NCBI GenBank assembly: GCA_963621525.1
Contig: CAVFER010000002.1
Coordinates: forward strand, 25,773 to 89,772
Length of the DNA stretch: 64,000 nt
Origin: a bacterium
GTDB lineage: Bacteria > Bacillota > Clostridia > Lachnospirales > Lachnospiraceae
Direction: 5' to 3'
The translations under genes and the position numbers were made by a program. Positions 4,119 to 59,887 of the stretch are shown one piece after another (within the stretch, counting starts at the first letter, position 1; every line of letters starts with the position of its first letter). Below the pieces are notes generated by a model. That model made no database searches. It saw only the letters and a list, made by a program, of their open reading frames with translations, and was not told the DNA's origin.

Positions 4119-5603
4119 TTATACATCGTGATAAAATTCACGTATCATAGGATAAATGGTTTTATATTTCTTATAAACAGGTTCATACGCCTTTACAGCG
4201 TCCGGGTCCGGCTTTAGGACCGTGCAGCCGCCTTTTTCTTCTAATACATGAATAAAGGACGGATAATCCGGGATAATGCCCTCGGCCAGGAAAACACTGG
4301 ACGCAATGGCAAGTGCAGGCAGCAGATCCGGGTCTTTGTAAACATGAACAGGAAGGCCCATTACATTACTTAAGATCCGGCACCAGGCAAGTTCTCTTGC
4401 ACCGCCTCCGATGACGGAAAGTTTCACTGCAGGGTGATTAAAGAGCTCCAAGCCGTGGCGAATGGAAAATGCCACTCCTTCTAATACACTTCCTGCCATG
4501 TCTGCGGCAGAGGTATTCTGATCTAAACCAAGGAAAGAGGCGCGGATGTGGCTGTCCATAATAGGAAAACGTTCACCGGTCAGATAGGGCAGGAAAAAGA
4601 CACCGTGGCTGCCGGGAACATGTTCTTTTAAAAGGTGGGAGATATAGGAAAAATCCGGCGTATGGTCCGGCTCGCGGGATAAGATCCGGGCAATAAAGCG
4701 GTGTACATTTCCGCCATTTAAAAATGGTACAACATTGATATACAGATCCTTTTGCATGGCAGCCAGGTTAAAACCGCCGCCTTCGCTGTCCATAAGGCCT
4801 TTTGAAACGGCTGCCACCCAGCTGGAAGTTCCAAGGTTAATATTATATTCCCCGGGCGCTAAAATGCCGCTGGCAAGTGTGGTAGCCCCGGCATCTCCTG
4901 TGCCTGCGTAAACCTTTGTGCCGGGCAGATAGCCGGTATCAGCAGCCCCGTTTTCGGTTATTACGCCTGCAAGTTCATGGGAATGGAGCAGTTTTGGAAA
5001 TTTTCTCATGTCCAGCCCGGAGCCGTTTATCAGGAGTTCGGACCATGTTTTATGTTCCAGATCCATAGCTCCGGCTGTAGCGCAGGCCGTCATATCACCA
5101 AGCAAATTTCCGGTAAGTCTTGCGATCACATAGTCCTTAGAGCTGATGAGAAATGCAGCTGTCTGATCATAAATTTCCGGTTGATTTTCCTTTATCCACA
5201 AAATCTTTGCAAGTGGCATAGAACCGTCAAAATGGTTTCCGGTAACAGTGGTAATAGTATCGCCGCCAACGGCATTTTCGATGGCTTCTGCCTGTACGCC
5301 CGCCCGTCCGTCAGAGTATAGGATGGCATTGCGCAGGGCTTTTTGGTTACTTCCGACCGGTATCACATCCTGCATCTGACCGGAGAAAATAAGGGCGGAA
5401 ACGTCCTTAGCCGGTATCTTCTCGGTAAGCGCCCGGGATAAGGCGCAAAAAGCACTGTACCACTCATCCGGGTCCTGTTCCTTAAATCCGTTTTCTTCTA
5501 TGGAGTGGATCACCTTGCTTCCTGTAAAAACAGGTTCTCCATCGTCACGTACAGCTACCGCCTTTACTGCGGTAGTCCCGATGTCAAAGGTTGCAACTAA
5601 CAT
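4119..5603 (-). CDS. FGGY-family carbohydrate kinase (xylulokinase-like)
   Basis: 494 aa. N-terminal FDIGTTAVKAV ATPase motif and C-terminal VIGGGARELAWCRILSNVMGLPV, typical of FGGY kinases. GGAGG lies 10 nt upstream of the ATG. Last gene of the ABC operon. Confidence 0.8.
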   Translation of the reverse strand: MLVATFDIGTTAVKAVAVRDDGEPVFTGSKVIHSIEENGFKEQDPDEWYSAFCALSRALTEKIPAKDVSALIFSGQMQDVIPVGSNQKALRNAILYSDGRAGVQAEAIENAVGGDTITTVTGNHFDGSMPLAKILWIKENQPEIYDQTAAFLISSKDYVIARLTGNLLGDMTACATAGAMDLEHKTWSELLINGSGLDMRKFPKLLHSHELAGVITENGAADTGYLPGTKVYAGTGDAGATTLASGILAPGEYNINLGTSSWVAAVSKGLMDSEGGGFNLAAMQKDLYINVVPFLNGGNVHRFIARILSREPDHTPDFSYISHLLKEHVPGSHGVFFLPYLTGERFPIMDSHIRASFLGLDQNTSAADMAGSVLEGVAFSIRHGLELFNHPAVKLSVIGGGARELAWCRILSNVMGLPVHVYKDPDLLPALAIASSVFLAEGIIPDYPSFIHVLEEKGGCTVLKPDPDAVKAYEPVYKKYKTIYPMIREFYHDV

Positions 5604-5691: not shown

Positions 5692-6627
5692 TCAATTCTT
5701 TCCAGCGCCGATCTTCTGGATCACAACAGCCAGTATGATAATACCGCCGGTAATGATATTTTGCATAAAGCTTGGCATCTGCAAAATAGTCAGACCGTTG
5801 GCAAGAACTGCTAAAACAGCGGCGCCGATGAGCGTACCCACTACACAGGGAACACCGCTTTTAGAAACGGTACAGCCGATAAAAACAGCTGCATAAGACT
5901 GGAGAAAATAGCCTTGTCCGGCGGTGGTGTTGGCAGAACCGACTCTGGAAGCCACCAGTGCTCCTGCAAGGCCTGCAATGGCACCACATAAGGAAAAGGC
6001 CAGTACCCGGTAGCGGAAAATAGGGATTCCTGCTACTTCGGCAGCTTCCTTGCTGCCGCCAATGGCGTACAGTTTCCGGCCCGAAGCGGTGTGTCCCATG
6101 AAAACATAAAAAACAAGGTACAAAACAACAGCTGCCAGAGTGATGAACGGGATTCCTGCGATCTTTAAGATACCGGGAATGGTAAATGCCTTTGGAATAC
6201 CATTGAACACCGTAGTGCCGCCGGTAAGACCGTAAATCACGCCGTCTAATACGGTTCCCATACCGAGAGTAGTGATAAAAGATAAGATCTGAAAACGGGC
6301 AACTACAATGCCGTTTACGCAGCCGACTAAAAGGCAGATCAGAGCGGCAATCAGAAAACACAGCGCTACAGGAATCTGGCGGATTGACAGCAGAGCAGCG
6401 ATCACGCCTCCCAGACTTACAATATTTCCCACGGATAAGTCAAACTCATTGATGGTCATAACAAAAGTAGCGCCAAGAGCCACCATGGCTAACGGTGCCG
6501 CCTGTCTGCTGATATTTAAGAAGTTTTTCACTGTGCAGAAAGAGGCCGGGCGGAGAATGGAAAAAATAAGGATGATCACCGCCAGTGCAGCTACGGTTCC
6601 ATAATGTTTAAATGCTTTCATTTTCAT
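5692..6627 (-). CDS. Sugar ABC transporter permease (RbsC/AraH-type, CUT2 family)
   Basis: Polytopic membrane protein of RbsC-like composition. ATG 6627 is preferred (GAGAGG 6 nt upstream) over the track start 6651. Confidence 0.85.
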   Translation of the reverse strand: MKMKAFKHYGTVAALAVIILIFSILRPASFCTVKNFLNISRQAAPLAMVALGATFVMTINEFDLSVGNIVSLGGVIAALLSIRQIPVALCFLIAALICLLVGCVNGIVVARFQILSFITTLGMGTVLDGVIYGLTGGTTVFNGIPKAFTIPGILKIAGIPFITLAAVVLYLVFYVFMGHTASGRKLYAIGGSKEAAEVAGIPIFRYRVLAFSLCGAIAGLAGALVASRVGSANTTAGQGYFLQSYAAVFIGCTVSKSGVPCVVGTLIGAAVLAVLANGLTILQMPSFMQNIITGGIIILAVVIQKIGAGKN

Positions 6628-8248
6628 GTATTTCCTCTCTTTCTGCTTCATAACAGCAGGCCAGTATGTCCGCTGGCTTTAAATTCTTATTTGGAAAGAT
6701 CTTGCGTATTTTCCCTGATGCCATGACTGCGATCTCATCAGCCACTTCCAAAAGCTCTGTAAGATCCGATGAAACGTAGAGAACGGCTTTGTTTTCTGCT
6801 GCCTGAGTGCGCAGCAGGCTGTGGATCTGCTGTCTGGTGGCTACATCCACGGCTTGTGTGGGTTCATCGCACAGCCATATGGAGGGGGATGTAAGCAGTG
6901 CTTTGGCAAATACAACCTTTTGCTGGTTGCCGCCGGACAGCTCGCAGGCTGGCTGGGAAGTGCCGGTGCAGCGGATCTTTAAGGCGGTTATCATGTTTTT
7001 CGCTGCCAAAACAGCATCTGCCTTTGAGAAAAGACCCTTTTTAGAATAATGGTCAATAGAAGATAAGTTCATGTTTTCTTCTATCGTAAAGGACGGGATC
7101 ATGGCCTTGCGCCGCCTGTCTTCGCAGATAAAGGCAATACCTTTTTTAATAGAATCAACAGGAGTTGGCTTTTTCACCATTTCTTCGCCAATTTCAATGG
7201 TTCCGCCGGATATGCGCCGGATGCCGTAGATACATTCTAAAAACTCCGTCCGCCCGCTGCCGCAAAGACCGAACATACCGGTAATATGTCCTCTGTGGAC
7301 AGTAAGACTGGCGTCTTTTACAATGTGGTCAGCAGATGCTAAGTGGGAGATAGTAAGTGCAGGGGATGATTGTGTGACTGCCGATGGGGAATGATCGGTG
7401 CTGTCTGGTATCAGATGTTTGTTGGATACTTCCGATTTAGGCACATTTTTCAGATCGCCTGACTTCGAGCTGTCTGTGGTCGCAGACTGTCTGCCTTCAG
7501 CGGTCTGTTTCGCATCTCCATCTTCGTCTTCGTTACCGCCCATCAGCTGCACCAGTTCCTTCTGGCTGGTAGAAGCAGTATCACAGGTGCTTACTAACTT
7601 ACCATTTCTAAGGACTGTCACCCGGTCAGTCAGCGCCATGATTTCTTCCAGCCTGTGGGTCACATAAAGGACTGCAGTTCCATTTTCCTTCAGATTTTTT
7701 ATAATGGAGAACAATAAATTTGTTTCTTTATCAGAGAGAGAAGCAGTAGGCTCATCTAAGATCATTAACCTGCAGTCACTCATCATGGCCCGCAGGATCT
7801 CCACGCATTTCTTCTGGGCCGGAGTCATCTGGAAGATGGATTTTTTTAAGTCTAAATGAATTCCGAGTTCTTCTCCCTTTTTCCGGGCTGCCATCTCCAT
7901 TTCCTTCCATTGGATCAGACCGCCCTTTCGGGGATAAGGCCGTCCAAGCCAGATATTTTCCAGAGCGGAAAATGCAGGTATCAGCACGTGATCCTGGAAA
8001 ATGATATTGATGCCCAGTTCCCGGCTTTGCACCGGGCCGAAATCAGCAGGAAAAGGAGCTCCGTTCCAGATTAGCTCCCCTCTGTTTTTTGTATACACGC
8101 CGCCTAAAATCTTGATAAACGTAGACTTTCCGGCGCCATTTTCACCTACCAGTCCATGGATCTCTCCCACCTTTAGAGAAAGATCCAGTCCCTTAAGGGC
8201 ATATACACCATTAAATGTTTTGTCCAGTTTCTTTGCTTCTAACAGCAT
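6608..8248 (-). CDS. Sugar ABC transporter ATP-binding protein, fused double nucleotide-binding domain (RbsA/MglA type)
   Basis: Walker A GENGAGKST and LILDEPTASL lie in the first nucleotide-binding domain (NBD). The second NBD has CGSGRTE, LSGGNQQK and WLCDEPTQAVD. ATG 8248 has AGGTGG 5 nt upstream; the track's GTG 8257 lies inside that RBS. Confidence 0.85.
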   Translation of the reverse strand: MLLEAKKLDKTFNGVYALKGLDLSLKVGEIHGLVGENGAGKSTFIKILGGVYTKNRGELIWNGAPFPADFGPVQSRELGINIIFQDHVLIPAFSALENIWLGRPYPRKGGLIQWKEMEMAARKKGEELGIHLDLKKSIFQMTPAQKKCVEILRAMMSDCRLMILDEPTASLSDKETNLLFSIIKNLKENGTAVLYVTHRLEEIMALTDRVTVLRNGKLVSTCDTASTSQKELVQLMGGNEDEDGDAKQTAEGRQSATTDSSKSGDLKNVPKSEVSNKHLIPDSTDHSPSAVTQSSPALTISHLASADHIVKDASLTVHRGHITGMFGLCGSGRTEFLECIYGIRRISGGTIEIGEEMVKKPTPVDSIKKGIAFICEDRRRKAMIPSFTIEENMNLSSIDHYSKKGLFSKADAVLAAKNMITALKIRCTGTSQPACELSGGNQQKVVFAKALLTSPSIWLCDEPTQAVDVATRQQIHSLLRTQAAENKAVLYVSSDLTELLEVADEIAVMASGKIRKIFPNKNLKPADILACCYEAEREEIHENESI

Positions 8249-8347
8249 TCTTGCCACCTGCCATTTTCTGTGATCGAATCATGATCTGTAATCTGCATCA
8301 GCTCAAATTCCCTTCGGTTCATCTGCAACCCATGGAAATTTATGCTG

Positions 8348-9406
8348 TTACTGAGCATTTTCCTGAGTAATAAGTTCTGCCGGAGCGTACATTTCACCTT
8401 TTTCAATGGTTTCTCCTGCATAATATTTTTCCATCTGCTGGCAGACGATATCAGCCATGCCTTCAAAATTCTGCTTTACCGTTGCCTTTAAGCAGGAACC
8501 GTCTTTGATCATCTGCACTGCCTGTTCATTTCCGTCAACACCGGTAACGATTACTTCATCACGTCCTGCTTCTGCTAATGCCTTTGCAGCGCCGATGGCC
8601 GGTTCATCCCATGCAGCGAAAATAGCAGTTACGGAATCTTTATCAGGATTTGCGGTCAGCAGGTTAGCGGTGATCTCTTCTGCGTCATTAATAGGCTGTT
8701 CAGCCGGCACATGCTGTTCTGTGATCAGTTGAATATCCGGATATTCTTTTATAATGTCATCGAATGCTTCACAACGCTTTACAACACCCGGATGAGGTCT
8801 GTGGGTCAGTGCGATCACAGTACCTTTGCCGCCCATCAGGTCGTCAAAAAGGTAGCGGACGATCAGTTCGCCCATCTGGTAGTTGTCGCTGGTAGCATTG
8901 ACCTGCATTCCGTCAATAAAACCGCTGTCACAGCCAAATACCGGGATATCTGCGTCAAAAGCTTCTGTCAGCTGGTTTGCAACCTGATTGGGGTCTGCAC
9001 TTACTAAAACAATGCCGTCTGTGCCGGAAGAAACAACGTCTTCAATACGGCTTGCCAGCTCTGCGAAATCATTGGCAGTATCGATCACAAATACCTCTGC
9101 GCCTTCCGCCTCTAAGTTATCTTTGATAAAGCCGGCCATCTGGTTGGTGGTGACAGAAGTAAGGTAGGGTGTCATAACGGAAATCTTTTTGCCTGCAAGA
9201 GCAGAGTCGCCCGCCGTCTTTACGTCTGCTTTGCCGTCAGCTGCATCCTCAGAAGCTTTCTTAGTATCAGCAGCAGTTTCTGCCTGTGCAGTTGTTTCCG
9301 TCTGTGCAGCAGTTGTTTCATCTGCTTCCGTAGAGCAGCCTGTAAGCAGGATACCGGTCAGTGCTGCAGCTGCAGCCAGAGTTAAGAAATTACGCATTTT
9401 TTTCAT
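8348..9406 (-). CDS. Sugar-type ABC substrate-binding lipoprotein (periplasmic-binding-protein type I, ribose-binding-like)
   Basis: Lipobox LLTGC follows a signal peptide, then a T/A/E-rich linker and an RbsB-like core (VLVSADPN..., AIFAAWDEPAIGAAKAL, VTGVDG). AGGAGG lies 8 nt upstream of ATG 9406. Confidence 0.85.
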   Translation of the reverse strand: MKKMRNFLTLAAAAALTGILLTGCSTEADETTAAQTETTAQAETAADTKKASEDAADGKADVKTAGDSALAGKKISVMTPYLTSVTTNQMAGFIKDNLEAEGAEVFVIDTANDFAELASRIEDVVSSGTDGIVLVSADPNQVANQLTEAFDADIPVFGCDSGFIDGMQVNATSDNYQMGELIVRYLFDDLMGGKGTVIALTHRPHPGVVKRCEAFDDIIKEYPDIQLITEQHVPAEQPINDAEEITANLLTANPDKDSVTAIFAAWDEPAIGAAKALAEAGRDEVIVTGVDGNEQAVQMIKDGSCLKATVKQNFEGMADIVCQQMEKYYAGETIEKGEMYAPAELITQENAQ

Positions 9407-9480
9407 AATGTTGTCCTCCTTAGATAAAGATGTCCGAGAGAGCATAAAGTTTTTGTTTGCCGGAATACATTTTGGAATTA

Positions 9481-9516
9481 AAAAATCCCGGACATGACTT
9501 TTATATCATGTCCGGG
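9481..9516 (-). terminator. T-box expression-platform terminator
   Basis: Perfect 11-bp stem CCCGGACATGA/TCATGTCCGGG with an 8-nt loop, followed by a U tract on the minus strand. Its 5' arm overlaps the 3' arm of the antiterminator. Confidence 0.85.
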
Positions 9517-9601
9517 ACGAATGAATCGTGGTGCCACCCGAGTTCACAGATATGGCTTAACATCTACGAACTGCTTCGCACTGGTGTGCAACGCTGGTGT
9601 T

Positions 9602-9638
9602 AAATAAAAAGCAGCTACTCCATAATCGGAATATCTGC
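9602..9638 (-). terminator. Additional terminator-like hairpin plus U tract inside the T-box leader
   Basis: Minus-strand GCAGAUAUUCC-GAUUAU-GGAGUAGCUGC (11 positions, 1 mismatch, 1 G-U pair) followed by UUUUUAUUU. Confidence 0.45.
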
Positions 9639-9870
9639 CACCAATCTGTCTCATTTTCAGAGTACGGAAAGTTATAAAAAAGCTTCGATACTCTTATCCT
9701 TTAACGCAGGAATCACGGCCTCGGCTACTTGCTGTCGCGTTCGCCTGGCGTCTCACAAACCCATTCCATAAGGAACTCCATACTGCCTTCCACCACCGGC
9801 AGCTCTCTGTGATCTCATTCCGAATGTACTCTCTTTGCTCATCGACGTTACATTTGAATTTTATGGTAAT

Positions 9871-9899
9871 AAAGTAGCACAATTTATACGCACTGTCAA
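9871..9899 (-). promoter_or_regulatory. Sigma-A-type promoter of the T-box/ABC/kinase operon
   Basis: Minus strand: TTGACA (9899-9894), 17-nt spacer ending in TGC (extended -10), then TACTTT (9876-9871). Confidence 0.55.
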
Positions 9900-10012
9900 T
9901 TATTTTCAGCGTTTTTTTGGCGGGCTAAAAGGTTTCCTGAAAGATTATCCGAATTACATTGACCGGACCGCGGGTATGCTGTAACATAGATAAAAAACGG
10001 AGGAAATGATGT

Positions 10013-20615: not shown

Positions 20616-20725
20616 AGAACTGGAAAAGGGGAGCTGGCAGTGAGCTGGCTGAGAGTGGGATGCGTTTCCCAGACCCGTAACCTGATTTGGATAATGCCAA
20701 CGTAGGGATATAAAACCGAGGTCGT
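20616..20725 (+). promoter_or_regulatory. TPP (THI-box) riboswitch
   Basis: GGGGAGC...GCTGAGAG...ACCC..AACCTGATTTGGATAATGCCAACGTAGGGA conserved core. Confidence 0.9.
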
Positions 20726-59722: not shown

Positions 59723-59752
59723 TTGACAATTTTCACTAATAAATGCTATTCT
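59723..59752 (+). promoter_or_regulatory. thiC-thiE promoter
   Basis: TTGACA, 18-nt spacer ending in TGC, TATTCT. Confidence 0.55.
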
Positions 59753-59756
59753 GAAT

Positions 59757-59856
59757 GCGAACAGGGAGCTTGTGAAGCAGGCTGAGAGGAAGTAATCGAA
59801 CTTCGACCTATTGTACCTGATGTGGGTAATGCCAACGTAGGGAAATAATGTGTCGC
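59757..59856 (+). promoter_or_regulatory. TPP (THI-box) riboswitch
   Basis: P1 is GCGAACA...TGTGTCGC. Core is GGGAGC...GCTGAGAGG...ACCTGATGTGGGTAATGCCAACGTAGGGA. Confidence 0.9.
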
Positions 59857-59887
59857 ATACTATATTTGCGTATCGTGCGTATATGTT

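Follow-up and report, generated by a model that had tools for sequence, protein, structure and literature searches.

In T-box leaders, uncharged tRNA pairs through its anticodon with the specifier and through its 3′ end with a bulge, stabilizing an antiterminator and allowing read-through into the genes beyond. T-boxes have been described in front of genes for amino-acid biosynthesis, for aminoacyl-tRNA synthetases and for transporters of amino acids or peptides. A system of a different kind, the Lsr system for autoinducer 2 (AI-2), consists of the LsrACDB importer, the FGGY-family kinase LsrK, the SorC-family repressor LsrR and the TIM-barrel enzyme LsrF. Tryptophan-specific (Trp) T-boxes have been described in the leaders of Firmicutes trp operons and trpS genes and in that of S. 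suis trpXYZ, where the T-box controls a binding-protein-dependent ATP-binding cassette (ABC) importer serving Trp supply (PMC9382623). Trp auxotrophy is common among gut Clostridia, and gut genomes that encode only TrpAB (the A1 variant) have been interpreted as using 'indole precursors' (Ashniev et al., 2022; PMC9026213). In this study, we analysed a stretch of 64 000 nucleotides from a Lachnospiraceae genome (assembly GCA_963621525.1, contig CAVFER010000002.1, positions 25 773–89 772; hereafter the window), in which a leader that is almost certainly a Trp T-box precedes an operon encoding a sugar-type (CUT2) ABC importer and an FGGY-family kinase. The RNA element is an ordinary Trp T-box in its architecture; what is new is the operon under its control, a predicted salvage importer and kinase. 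This operon belongs to a wider, unannotated family of cassettes in Clostridia.

The leader (Table 1) is matched over the full length of the T-box model RF00230 (model positions 1–219 of 219) with 91.3 bits and an E value of 1.3e-20 in a permissive Rfam cmscan of positions 9350–10000. Stem I folded alone (9846→9745) adopts the canonical architecture, in agreement with the Rfam alignment. Its base is built from a GUC/GAC helix, a K-turn internal loop (GAUGAG/UGA) and a GCAAA/UUUGU helix; the specifier internal loop carries the S-turn GAGAGUA on its 5′ side and GAAUGGG on its 3′ side, and the upper part of the stem holds the AG bulge CACAGAGAG (AGAGA) and the distal loop GGUGGUGGAA. The Rfam alignment and the fold agree on a specifier layout of GAA-UGG-G, with the helix strand UUUG next to it. 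The Stem II motif AGUA and the F-box GCGUUA are also present. Folded in isolation, the antiterminator takes the form (((((.......((((.....))))))))) with a 7-nt bulge, UGGCACC (−8.4 kcal/mol). The UGGC within this bulge would pair with a tRNA 3′ end GCCA, and the validated T-box of S. suis trpX carries the same UGGC (PMC9382623). The competing terminator is a perfect 11-bp helix followed by a U tract (−31.2 kcal/mol, z = −6.2). A CCCGG strand is common to the 3′ strand of the antiterminator and the 5′ arm of the terminator, so that the two forms are mutually exclusive, and their energetics are those of a typical T-box. An initial annotation of the window had called a T-box here, with UGG as the specifier, a series of motifs (K-turn, S-turn, AG bulge, distal loop, Stem II, F-box and T-box sequence) and a switch between the antiterminator and an 11-bp terminator. 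The covariance model, the terminator scan and the folding uphold this description, and every motif lies where it had been placed. The leader thus resembles the Trp T-boxes of S. suis trpXYZ and of Firmicutes trp operons and trpS in a Stem I with UGG, the UGGC bulge and the competing terminator, and differs from them in large, lineage-variable insertions in Stem III.

These insertions account for a score that lies 1.7 bits under the RF00230 gathering score (93): the Rfam alignment contains insertions of about 37 nt 3′ of the F-box and of 83 nt within Stem III. A gathering-threshold Rfam scan of the whole window consequently missed the T-box and listed only two thiamine pyrophosphate (TPP) riboswitches. 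We count the leader as a T-box on its structural features despite the missed threshold. The missed threshold might also be taken to mean that the T-box is decayed and non-functional, broken by the Stem III insertions, with the operon expressed constitutively or in response to another signal; the variable spacing between Stem I and the T-box sequence (259–435 nt among orthologues) and an internal hairpin with a U-run would fit such a state. The insertions, however, are confined to Stem III, and Stem I, the specifier, the T-box bulge and the antiterminator/terminator pair are intact in the orthologues, with compensatory changes. An independent lineage of leaders, described below, also has the same regulatory arrangement. 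We therefore consider decay exceedingly improbable.

The Stem III region (9740→9545, minus strand) of this leader and of the related leaders described below (L001–L010 and L018) is a hotspot of insertion: counted from where Stem I begins, the T-box sequence lies between 259 nt (L003) and 435 nt (L010) away in near-identical orthologues. Some of the inserts are palindromic (in L001 and L010, for example, AAAGTCACAAATCC...GGATTTGTGATTTT), and the inserts resemble short repeats or mobile elements tolerated at this place. Within the expanded stem, the hairpin GCAGAUAUUCC/GGAGUAGCUGC is kept in all leaders of forms A and B, defined below, with compensatory changes in L004 (GCGGAUAUUCC/GGAAUAUCCGU); the region containing it (9640→9575) folds with −20.2 kcal/mol (z = −3.4). 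With its U-run, this hairpin looks like a second terminator or a pause site.

The operon encodes four proteins. The substrate-binding lipoprotein (SBP) matches only the Pfam families Peripla_BP_1, Peripla_BP_3 and Peripla_BP_4; together with an ATPase carrying two ABC_tran domains and a BPD_transp_2 permease it has the Pfam composition of a CUT2 importer. The fourth protein is an FGGY-family kinase. Since a strong terminator follows its stop codon, the four genes are taken as one unit. The Pfam and NCBIfam searches bear out the gene content of the initial annotation (lipoprotein SBP, fused ATPase, RbsC-type permease and FGGY kinase). As it had also stated, no regulator gene adjoins the operon, the neighbours (a SpoIIE phosphatase convergent downstream, DUF975 divergent upstream and a PNP-family protein) being unrelated. 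The best named family matches of the four proteins are RbsB, XylG/AraG, RbsC and XylB, and none of the four reaches any NCBIfam equivalog cutoff. The SBP scores 88 bits against a cutoff of 337 for RbsB, the ATPase 380 against 745 for RbsA (and remains below every other equivalog cutoff), the permease 189 against 398 for RbsC, and the kinase 297.7 against 380.25 for XylB (TIGR01312), which places it in the FGGY family without making it a xylulokinase. The nearest Protein Data Bank (PDB) entries are the ribose-binding protein 2ioy for the SBP (E = 1e-29) and the putative xylulokinase 3hz6 for the kinase (E = 1.3e-63).

Neither of the two described systems accommodates these proteins. TrpX-type SBPs belong to the ABC_sub_bind/COG2984 family and are paired with an ATPase that has a single nucleotide-binding domain (NBD), whereas the SBP of the window falls only in Peripla_BP families and its ATPase is a fused double NBD. 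TrpXYZ, of a different ABC family, imports Trp itself; the window importer is of the CUT2 type and is co-transcribed with an FGGY kinase, so its cargo must be phosphorylated, which excludes Trp itself. The scores against the Lsr models are likewise far below the cutoffs (LsrK, 102 against 528 bits; LsrA, 358 against 586; LsrC, 116 against 388). An AI-2/Lsr assignment, considered for the combination of a SorC regulator, a CUT2 importer and an FGGY kinase found in some related cassettes, was rejected on these equivalog scores and on the links to TrpA and to the T-box.

Table 1. Positions of the leader, its elements and the operon genes in the window (arrows give the direction of reading)
Feature	Position	Strand	Basis
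Putative sigma-70 promoter: TTGACA (9899→9894), 17-nt spacer, TG (9879–9878), TACTTT (9876→9871)	9871..9899	minus	direct reading
T-box leader, full length, Trp-specific	9510..9851 (9851→9510)	minus	RF00230 match
Stem I: K-turn base, specifier internal loop, AG bulge, distal loop	9750..9846	minus	minimum free energy fold and Rfam alignment
Specifier codon UGG (Trp), then purine G9760	9761..9763 (9763→9761)	minus	Rfam specifier columns and independent folding
Conserved hairpin GCAGAUAUUCC/GGAGUAGCUGC with U-run (UUUUUAUUU) in expanded Stem III, 5′ of the T-box sequence	9601..9639 (9639→9601)	minus	folding, leader comparison
T-box sequence GGGUGGCACCACG	9527..9539 (9539→9527)	minus	Rfam alignment; isolated antiterminator fold
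Leader intrinsic terminator CCCGGACAUGA/UCAUGUCCGGG with U tract	9478..9518	minus	terminator scan (9518→9485) and folding
Substrate-binding lipoprotein (SBP), lipobox LLTGC, CUT2/RbsB-like	8348..9406 (9406→8348)	minus	Pfam Peripla_BP_4, E 1.7e-41
Fused double-NBD ABC ATPase, RbsA/XylG-like	6608..8257 (8257→6608)	minus	two ABC_tran domains (Pfam)
RbsC-type permease	5692..6651 (6651→5692)	minus	Pfam BPD_transp_2, E 1.2e-38
FGGY-family kinase, XylB-like	4119..5603 (5603→4119)	minus	FGGY_N and FGGY_C domains
Operon-end intrinsic terminator, directly 3′ of the kinase stop codon	4088..4116 (4116→4088)	minus	terminator scan: 11 pairs, 8 G-C, T-rich tail

Related loci were collected by a scan of species-representative genomes with the SBP (24 loci) and by look-ups of the genomic context of SBP and TrpA-like homologues (13 loci), and the gene order of the resulting 37 loci was mapped by tblastn and with Pfam and NCBIfam. 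Every cassette complete enough to be judged is linked to Trp, in one of four forms. Form A, found in Enterocloster/Clostridium with SBPs 92–96% identical, is that of the window: T-box, SBP, ATPase, permease and kinase (also L003, L004 and L010; truncated in L001 and L002). Form B (L006, L007, L008 and L018; truncated in L005; SBP identity about 84%) has the leader and cassette of form A followed on the same strand by trpB-trpA, the spacer between cassette and trpB being 88–185 nt long with no clear terminator. Form C (L013–L017), from the Oscillospiraceae genera Oscillibacter and Dysosmobacter, begins with a different T-box, followed by trpB-trpA and then by SBP, ATPase, permease and kinase; the trpB and trpA products of L014 score 641 and 288 bits, far above the equivalog cutoffs. 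Form D is the commonest (18 loci) and consists of a gene for a SorC-family regulator (PF04198), the SBP, ATPase and permease genes, a gene for a TrpA-family protein of 240–275 amino acids and the kinase gene. It occurs in Enterocloster citroniae and aldenensis, Bacilliculturomica, Lachnospiraceae and other Clostridia. Four of its loci were found through a TrpA-like protein of only 39–46% identity, and all four carry the same six-gene cassette. No T-box motif was found in any form D locus. A trpA or TrpA-like gene stands in the operon in 24 of the 28 complete loci retrieved with the SBP alone, and the remaining four are form A operons with a Trp T-box. No trpC, trpF, trpD, trpE or trpG was seen in any annotated flank of the cassettes.

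This distribution bears on the possibility that the cargo is a common carbohydrate, either a sugar or a polyol (for example ribose, xylulose, ribitol or a tetritol). Control by the T-box would then serve to supply carbon skeletons (phosphoribosyl pyrophosphate, serine or glyceraldehyde-3-phosphate) during Trp starvation, or would be an evolutionary accident. All four proteins do belong to families of the monosaccharide type, and the AWD motif of the SBP is common to another sugar-binding-protein entry of the PDB, 4wt7. A link to Trp in every complete locus, in four arrangements, several families of Clostridia and a spirochaete, would however be unexpected for a generic sugar system, and no protein of the operon reaches an equivalog cutoff. 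A common sugar or polyol as cargo is decidedly unlikely.

The spirochaete locus is L020 (5904–12848), in a metagenome-assembled genome (MAG) of Spirochaetales, where trpB-trpA-SBP-ATPase-permease-kinase stand in the order of form C without a T-box motif and with an amidohydrolase gene upstream. The occurrence of the module outside Firmicutes suggests horizontal transfer of the whole module. Three other loci, L003, L005 and L010, are 84–95% identical to the window operon and lie in MAGs labelled Agathobaculum, Paludibacteraceae and Prevotella; these labels probably reflect binning contaminants and not true hosts. In the form D locus L034 (4571–5509), the SBP gene is called as two open reading frames of 199 and 104 amino acids, which would be a frameshifted pseudogene or an assembly error.

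The leader is present 5′ of the orthologous SBP gene in all ten of the form A and form B loci L001–L008, L010 and L018. The form C leader of L014 also matches RF00230 over its full length (66.1 bits, E = 3e-14), with UGG-G in the specifier columns. Rfam scans of eight loci at gathering level called no T-box, though L013, L014 and L016 carry one. Between the A/B and the C leaders, the sequences differ throughout while the same helices are kept: the K-turn helix is CAAA/UUUG in A/B and GUGA/UCAC in C, antiterminator helix A1 is CGGG/CCCG and AAGG/CCUU, helix A2 is ACGA/UCGU and GCGGU/ACCGU, and the terminator is CCCGGACAUGA/UCAUGUCCGGG and CGUCCUUGAUGAGA/UCUCAUCAGGGGCG, respectively. Against this background the two lineages have an identical specifier segment, AAUGGG, and an identical bulge, UGGCACC; AAUGGG is invariant in 7/7 aligned leaders, the conservation of UGG that had been proposed as a check on the specifier. 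The helices were compared lineage by lineage; a prediction with RNAalifold on a MAFFT alignment of both lineages was discarded for its spurious long-range pairs, which arose because an alignment from sequence only is not structural. In neighbour-joining trees of the SBP and of the kinase, A+B and C form separate clades with form D cassettes between them, which makes more than one acquisition of T-box control probable. Another possibility is that, in one lineage, the cassette entered a trpBA operon that was already under the control of a T-box.

The TrpA-family proteins of form D are informative on the reaction that follows phosphorylation. They were compared with S. typhimurium TrpA, whose sequence, identical to 1a50 chain A, provides the numbering. 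All catalytic and ligand-binding residues of TrpA are retained: the catalytic pair E49/D60, T183-G184 of loop 6 and the phosphate/indole pocket, with E49, D60, Y102, Y175, T183, G184, G211-F212-G213, G234 and S/T235 kept in 10/10 proteins. Overall they are only about 24% identical to canonical TrpA, carry F22Y and score 94–113 bits against TIGR00262, straddling the cutoff of 102. Their best PDB matches include maize BX1 (1tjr), a stand-alone indole-3-glycerol phosphate (IGP) lyase. In TrpA, αAsp56 forms an allosteric salt bridge to Lys167 of TrpB. The strict conservation of Asp at this position is lost in the TrpA-like proteins (D, T, N or A), and no trpB is adjacent in any form D locus; both features fit a stand-alone lyase. 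They resemble the plant stand-alone lyases BX1 and IGL in the retained catalytic pair and pocket and in the missing adjacent trpB, and differ from them in being bacterial and in lying inside an importer–kinase operon. In the canonical TrpA proteins linked to the cassette (L006–L008, L013–L018 and L020), catalytic position 60 is Glu in place of Asp in 10/10, within the motif AEGPVIQ, whereas Asp is retained at this position in the divergent TrpA-like proteins.

In an alignment of the SBP to 2ioy, with pocket numbering after the E. coli ribose-binding protein, the counterparts of the sugar-hydroxyl ligands Asp89, Arg141, Asp215 and Gln235 are kept, Arg90 is replaced by Ser and Asn190 by Trp. The pocket-aligned residues D160, S161, F163, S173-D174-N175, R211, W266-D267, D291, N293 and Q312 are invariant in 32/32 SBPs from forms A–D, and even the most distant cassettes show almost no variation at them, with F163Y in one locus. 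The invariance of the pocket across the forms points to one shared ligand, and the residues kept and exchanged imply that this ligand would join a polyol moiety to a part calling for a changed pocket of greater aromatic character.

Taken with the gene arrangements, these features make indole-3-glycerol the probable cargo, with the kinase forming IGP and TrpA and TrpB converting it to Trp; it is favoured because its phosphate is the substrate of TrpA. During Trp starvation, uncharged tRNA-Trp would stabilize the antiterminator and RNA polymerase would read into the operon. The importer would take up indole-3-glycerol, the dephosphorylated last intermediate of the pathway and predicted ligand of the SBP, and the FGGY kinase would phosphorylate its terminal hydroxyl to give IGP, which TrpA, and then TrpB with serine, would turn into Trp. 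Operons of forms B and C would encode everything needed to make Trp from indole-3-glycerol, and form A would need the housekeeping tryptophan synthase. Form D may be a substrate-inducible version of the same module, in which the TrpA-like lyase would cleave IGP to indole and glyceraldehyde-3-phosphate and the SorC regulator probably senses the phosphorylated product. Other SorC-family regulators sense phosphorylated products. Form D in this respect resembles Lsr, with a SorC regulator, a CUT2 importer, an FGGY kinase to trap the cargo by forming its phosphate ester and a TIM-barrel enzyme for the phosphorylated product, and differs in having one permease gene in place of two and a TIM-barrel enzyme of the TrpA family in place of LsrF; the window version differs further in its T-box control and in having no SorC repressor.

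The initial annotation had named two candidates for a salvaged Trp precursor, indole-3-glycerol and 1-(o-carboxyphenylamino)-1-deoxyribulose (CdR). The idea of salvage has gained genomic support from cassettes fused with trpB-trpA in two arrangements or provided with a dedicated TrpA-like lyase; CdR has lost ground. If CdR were the cargo, the kinase would produce its phosphate, CdRP, and the pathway would be entered at TrpC. Mutants in trpC are known to excrete CdR, and the closest characterized relatives of the kinase phosphorylate the 5-OH of a ketopentose, both in keeping with this route. The cassette is nonetheless repeatedly fused to trpA, trpBA or a TrpA-like gene, with no trpC seen next to any copy, and the sole extra enzyme of form D is a TrpA-like lyase unable to act on CdRP, which makes CdR a very improbable cargo. 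The exact identity of the molecule within the favoured class is a finer question, as the genomic arrangements speak for a compound that becomes a TrpA substrate after phosphorylation, that is, for a class of product. The compound imported under Trp-related T-box control might be another polyol or conjugate with an indole or aryl substituent, such as a substituted indole-glycerol or a glycoside from which one is released, giving after phosphorylation an IGP analogue to be cleaved by TrpA or the TrpA-like protein, and the specificity of the latter could be shifted, given its identity of about 24% and F22Y. The trpA and trpB of forms B and C, however, are canonical, with scores well beyond the equivalog cutoffs, a Trp T-box is sensible only if the product feeds Trp synthesis, and the SBP pocket is identical between the forms with canonical TrpA and with the TrpA-like protein. 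We regard such an analogue as unlikely.

Several observations weigh against indole-3-glycerol salvage under Trp T-box control, or limit it. The predicted ligand is derived from gene neighbourhood and residue conservation, and indole-3-glycerol would have to be available in the environment. The retention of several hydroxyl-binding residues of ribose-binding proteins makes the SBP compatible with an ordinary polyol or sugar, and the kinase is most similar to xylulokinases, which would suit a ketopentose-like substrate such as CdR. Neither trpA nor trpB occurs in the 64-kb window, so that the tryptophan synthase required there has to be encoded elsewhere. As to regulation, the leader misses the formal Rfam cutoff, and no tRNA-Trp gene was found in the window or in 18 loci, the match of the discriminator to UGGC resting on the literature. 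The trees carry no support values.

Indole salvage by TrpAB-only bacteria is a close parallel, since there too a late Trp precursor from the environment reaches TrpB (PMC9026213). It needs no importer, kinase or TrpA activity; the proposed cassette would enter one step earlier, at IGP, and would make TrpA catalytic. Our literature search found no report of an indole-3-glycerol kinase, of uptake of indole-3-glycerol or of an operon of this kind with a bacterial TrpA-like lyase. It likewise found no T-box linked to FGGY kinase or sugar ABC genes; a mention in the 2008 survey of T-box regulons or in T-box databases is possible. A Trp T-box before a sugar-type importer and a carbohydrate kinase would extend the T-box regulon to the salvage of a phosphorylatable intermediate. 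Routine annotation hides the system, since the leader lies just under the Rfam cutoff and the labels carried by the proteins read 'sugar ABC transporter' or 'tryptophan synthase subunit alpha'.

Taken as a whole, the case is evenly balanced for a more comprehensive proposal, in which the module would be an unrecognized and widespread pathway for the uptake and use of indole-3-glycerol. The kinase would be a new enzyme, indole-3-glycerol kinase, opening a new entry point into Trp synthesis, and the commonest form would contain a stand-alone bacterial IGP lyase that frees indole without tryptophanase. The module would be governed by two opposite logics, induction by substrate through SorC and induction by Trp starvation through T-boxes, the latter arising at least twice independently. 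Cross-feeding of indole-3-glycerol as a Trp precursor would then be likely among gut Clostridia and in gut communities, and Trp auxotrophs with 'TrpAB-only' genomes would have a catalytic reason to retain TrpA along with TrpB. The SorC-controlled form would supply indole independently of tryptophanase; indole acts on the host as a signalling molecule and is a precursor of a uremic toxin.

The remaining features of the loci are minor. The promoter in front of the leader has a perfect −35 element (TTGACA) and an extended TGc, and its −10 element, TACTTT, is weak, with 3/6 consensus positions. The extended −10 promoter given in the initial annotation is borne out only in part. Its layout is kept 5′ of the orthologous leaders of L003, L004, L008 and L018, with TAATCT as the −10 element in form B; the weakness of the −10 element, with matches at 3/6 positions only, is the reason why a consensus scan left it unlisted. 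The two TPP riboswitches of the window (RF00059), at 20617–20725 (+) and 59752–59861 (+), score 55.4 and 59.2 bits, above the gathering score. In L013, a cobalamin riboswitch (4389–4573, minus strand; 100.7 bits) lies about 1 kb 5′ of the T-box-trpBA operon on the opposite strand. In the form D loci L025, L026 and L033 (1–4572), from Enterocloster-type genomes, the genes just 5′ of the cassette are those for an ABC importer of the Bmp family (nucleoside type) and a hybrid histidine kinase, together with a gene of the GntR family.

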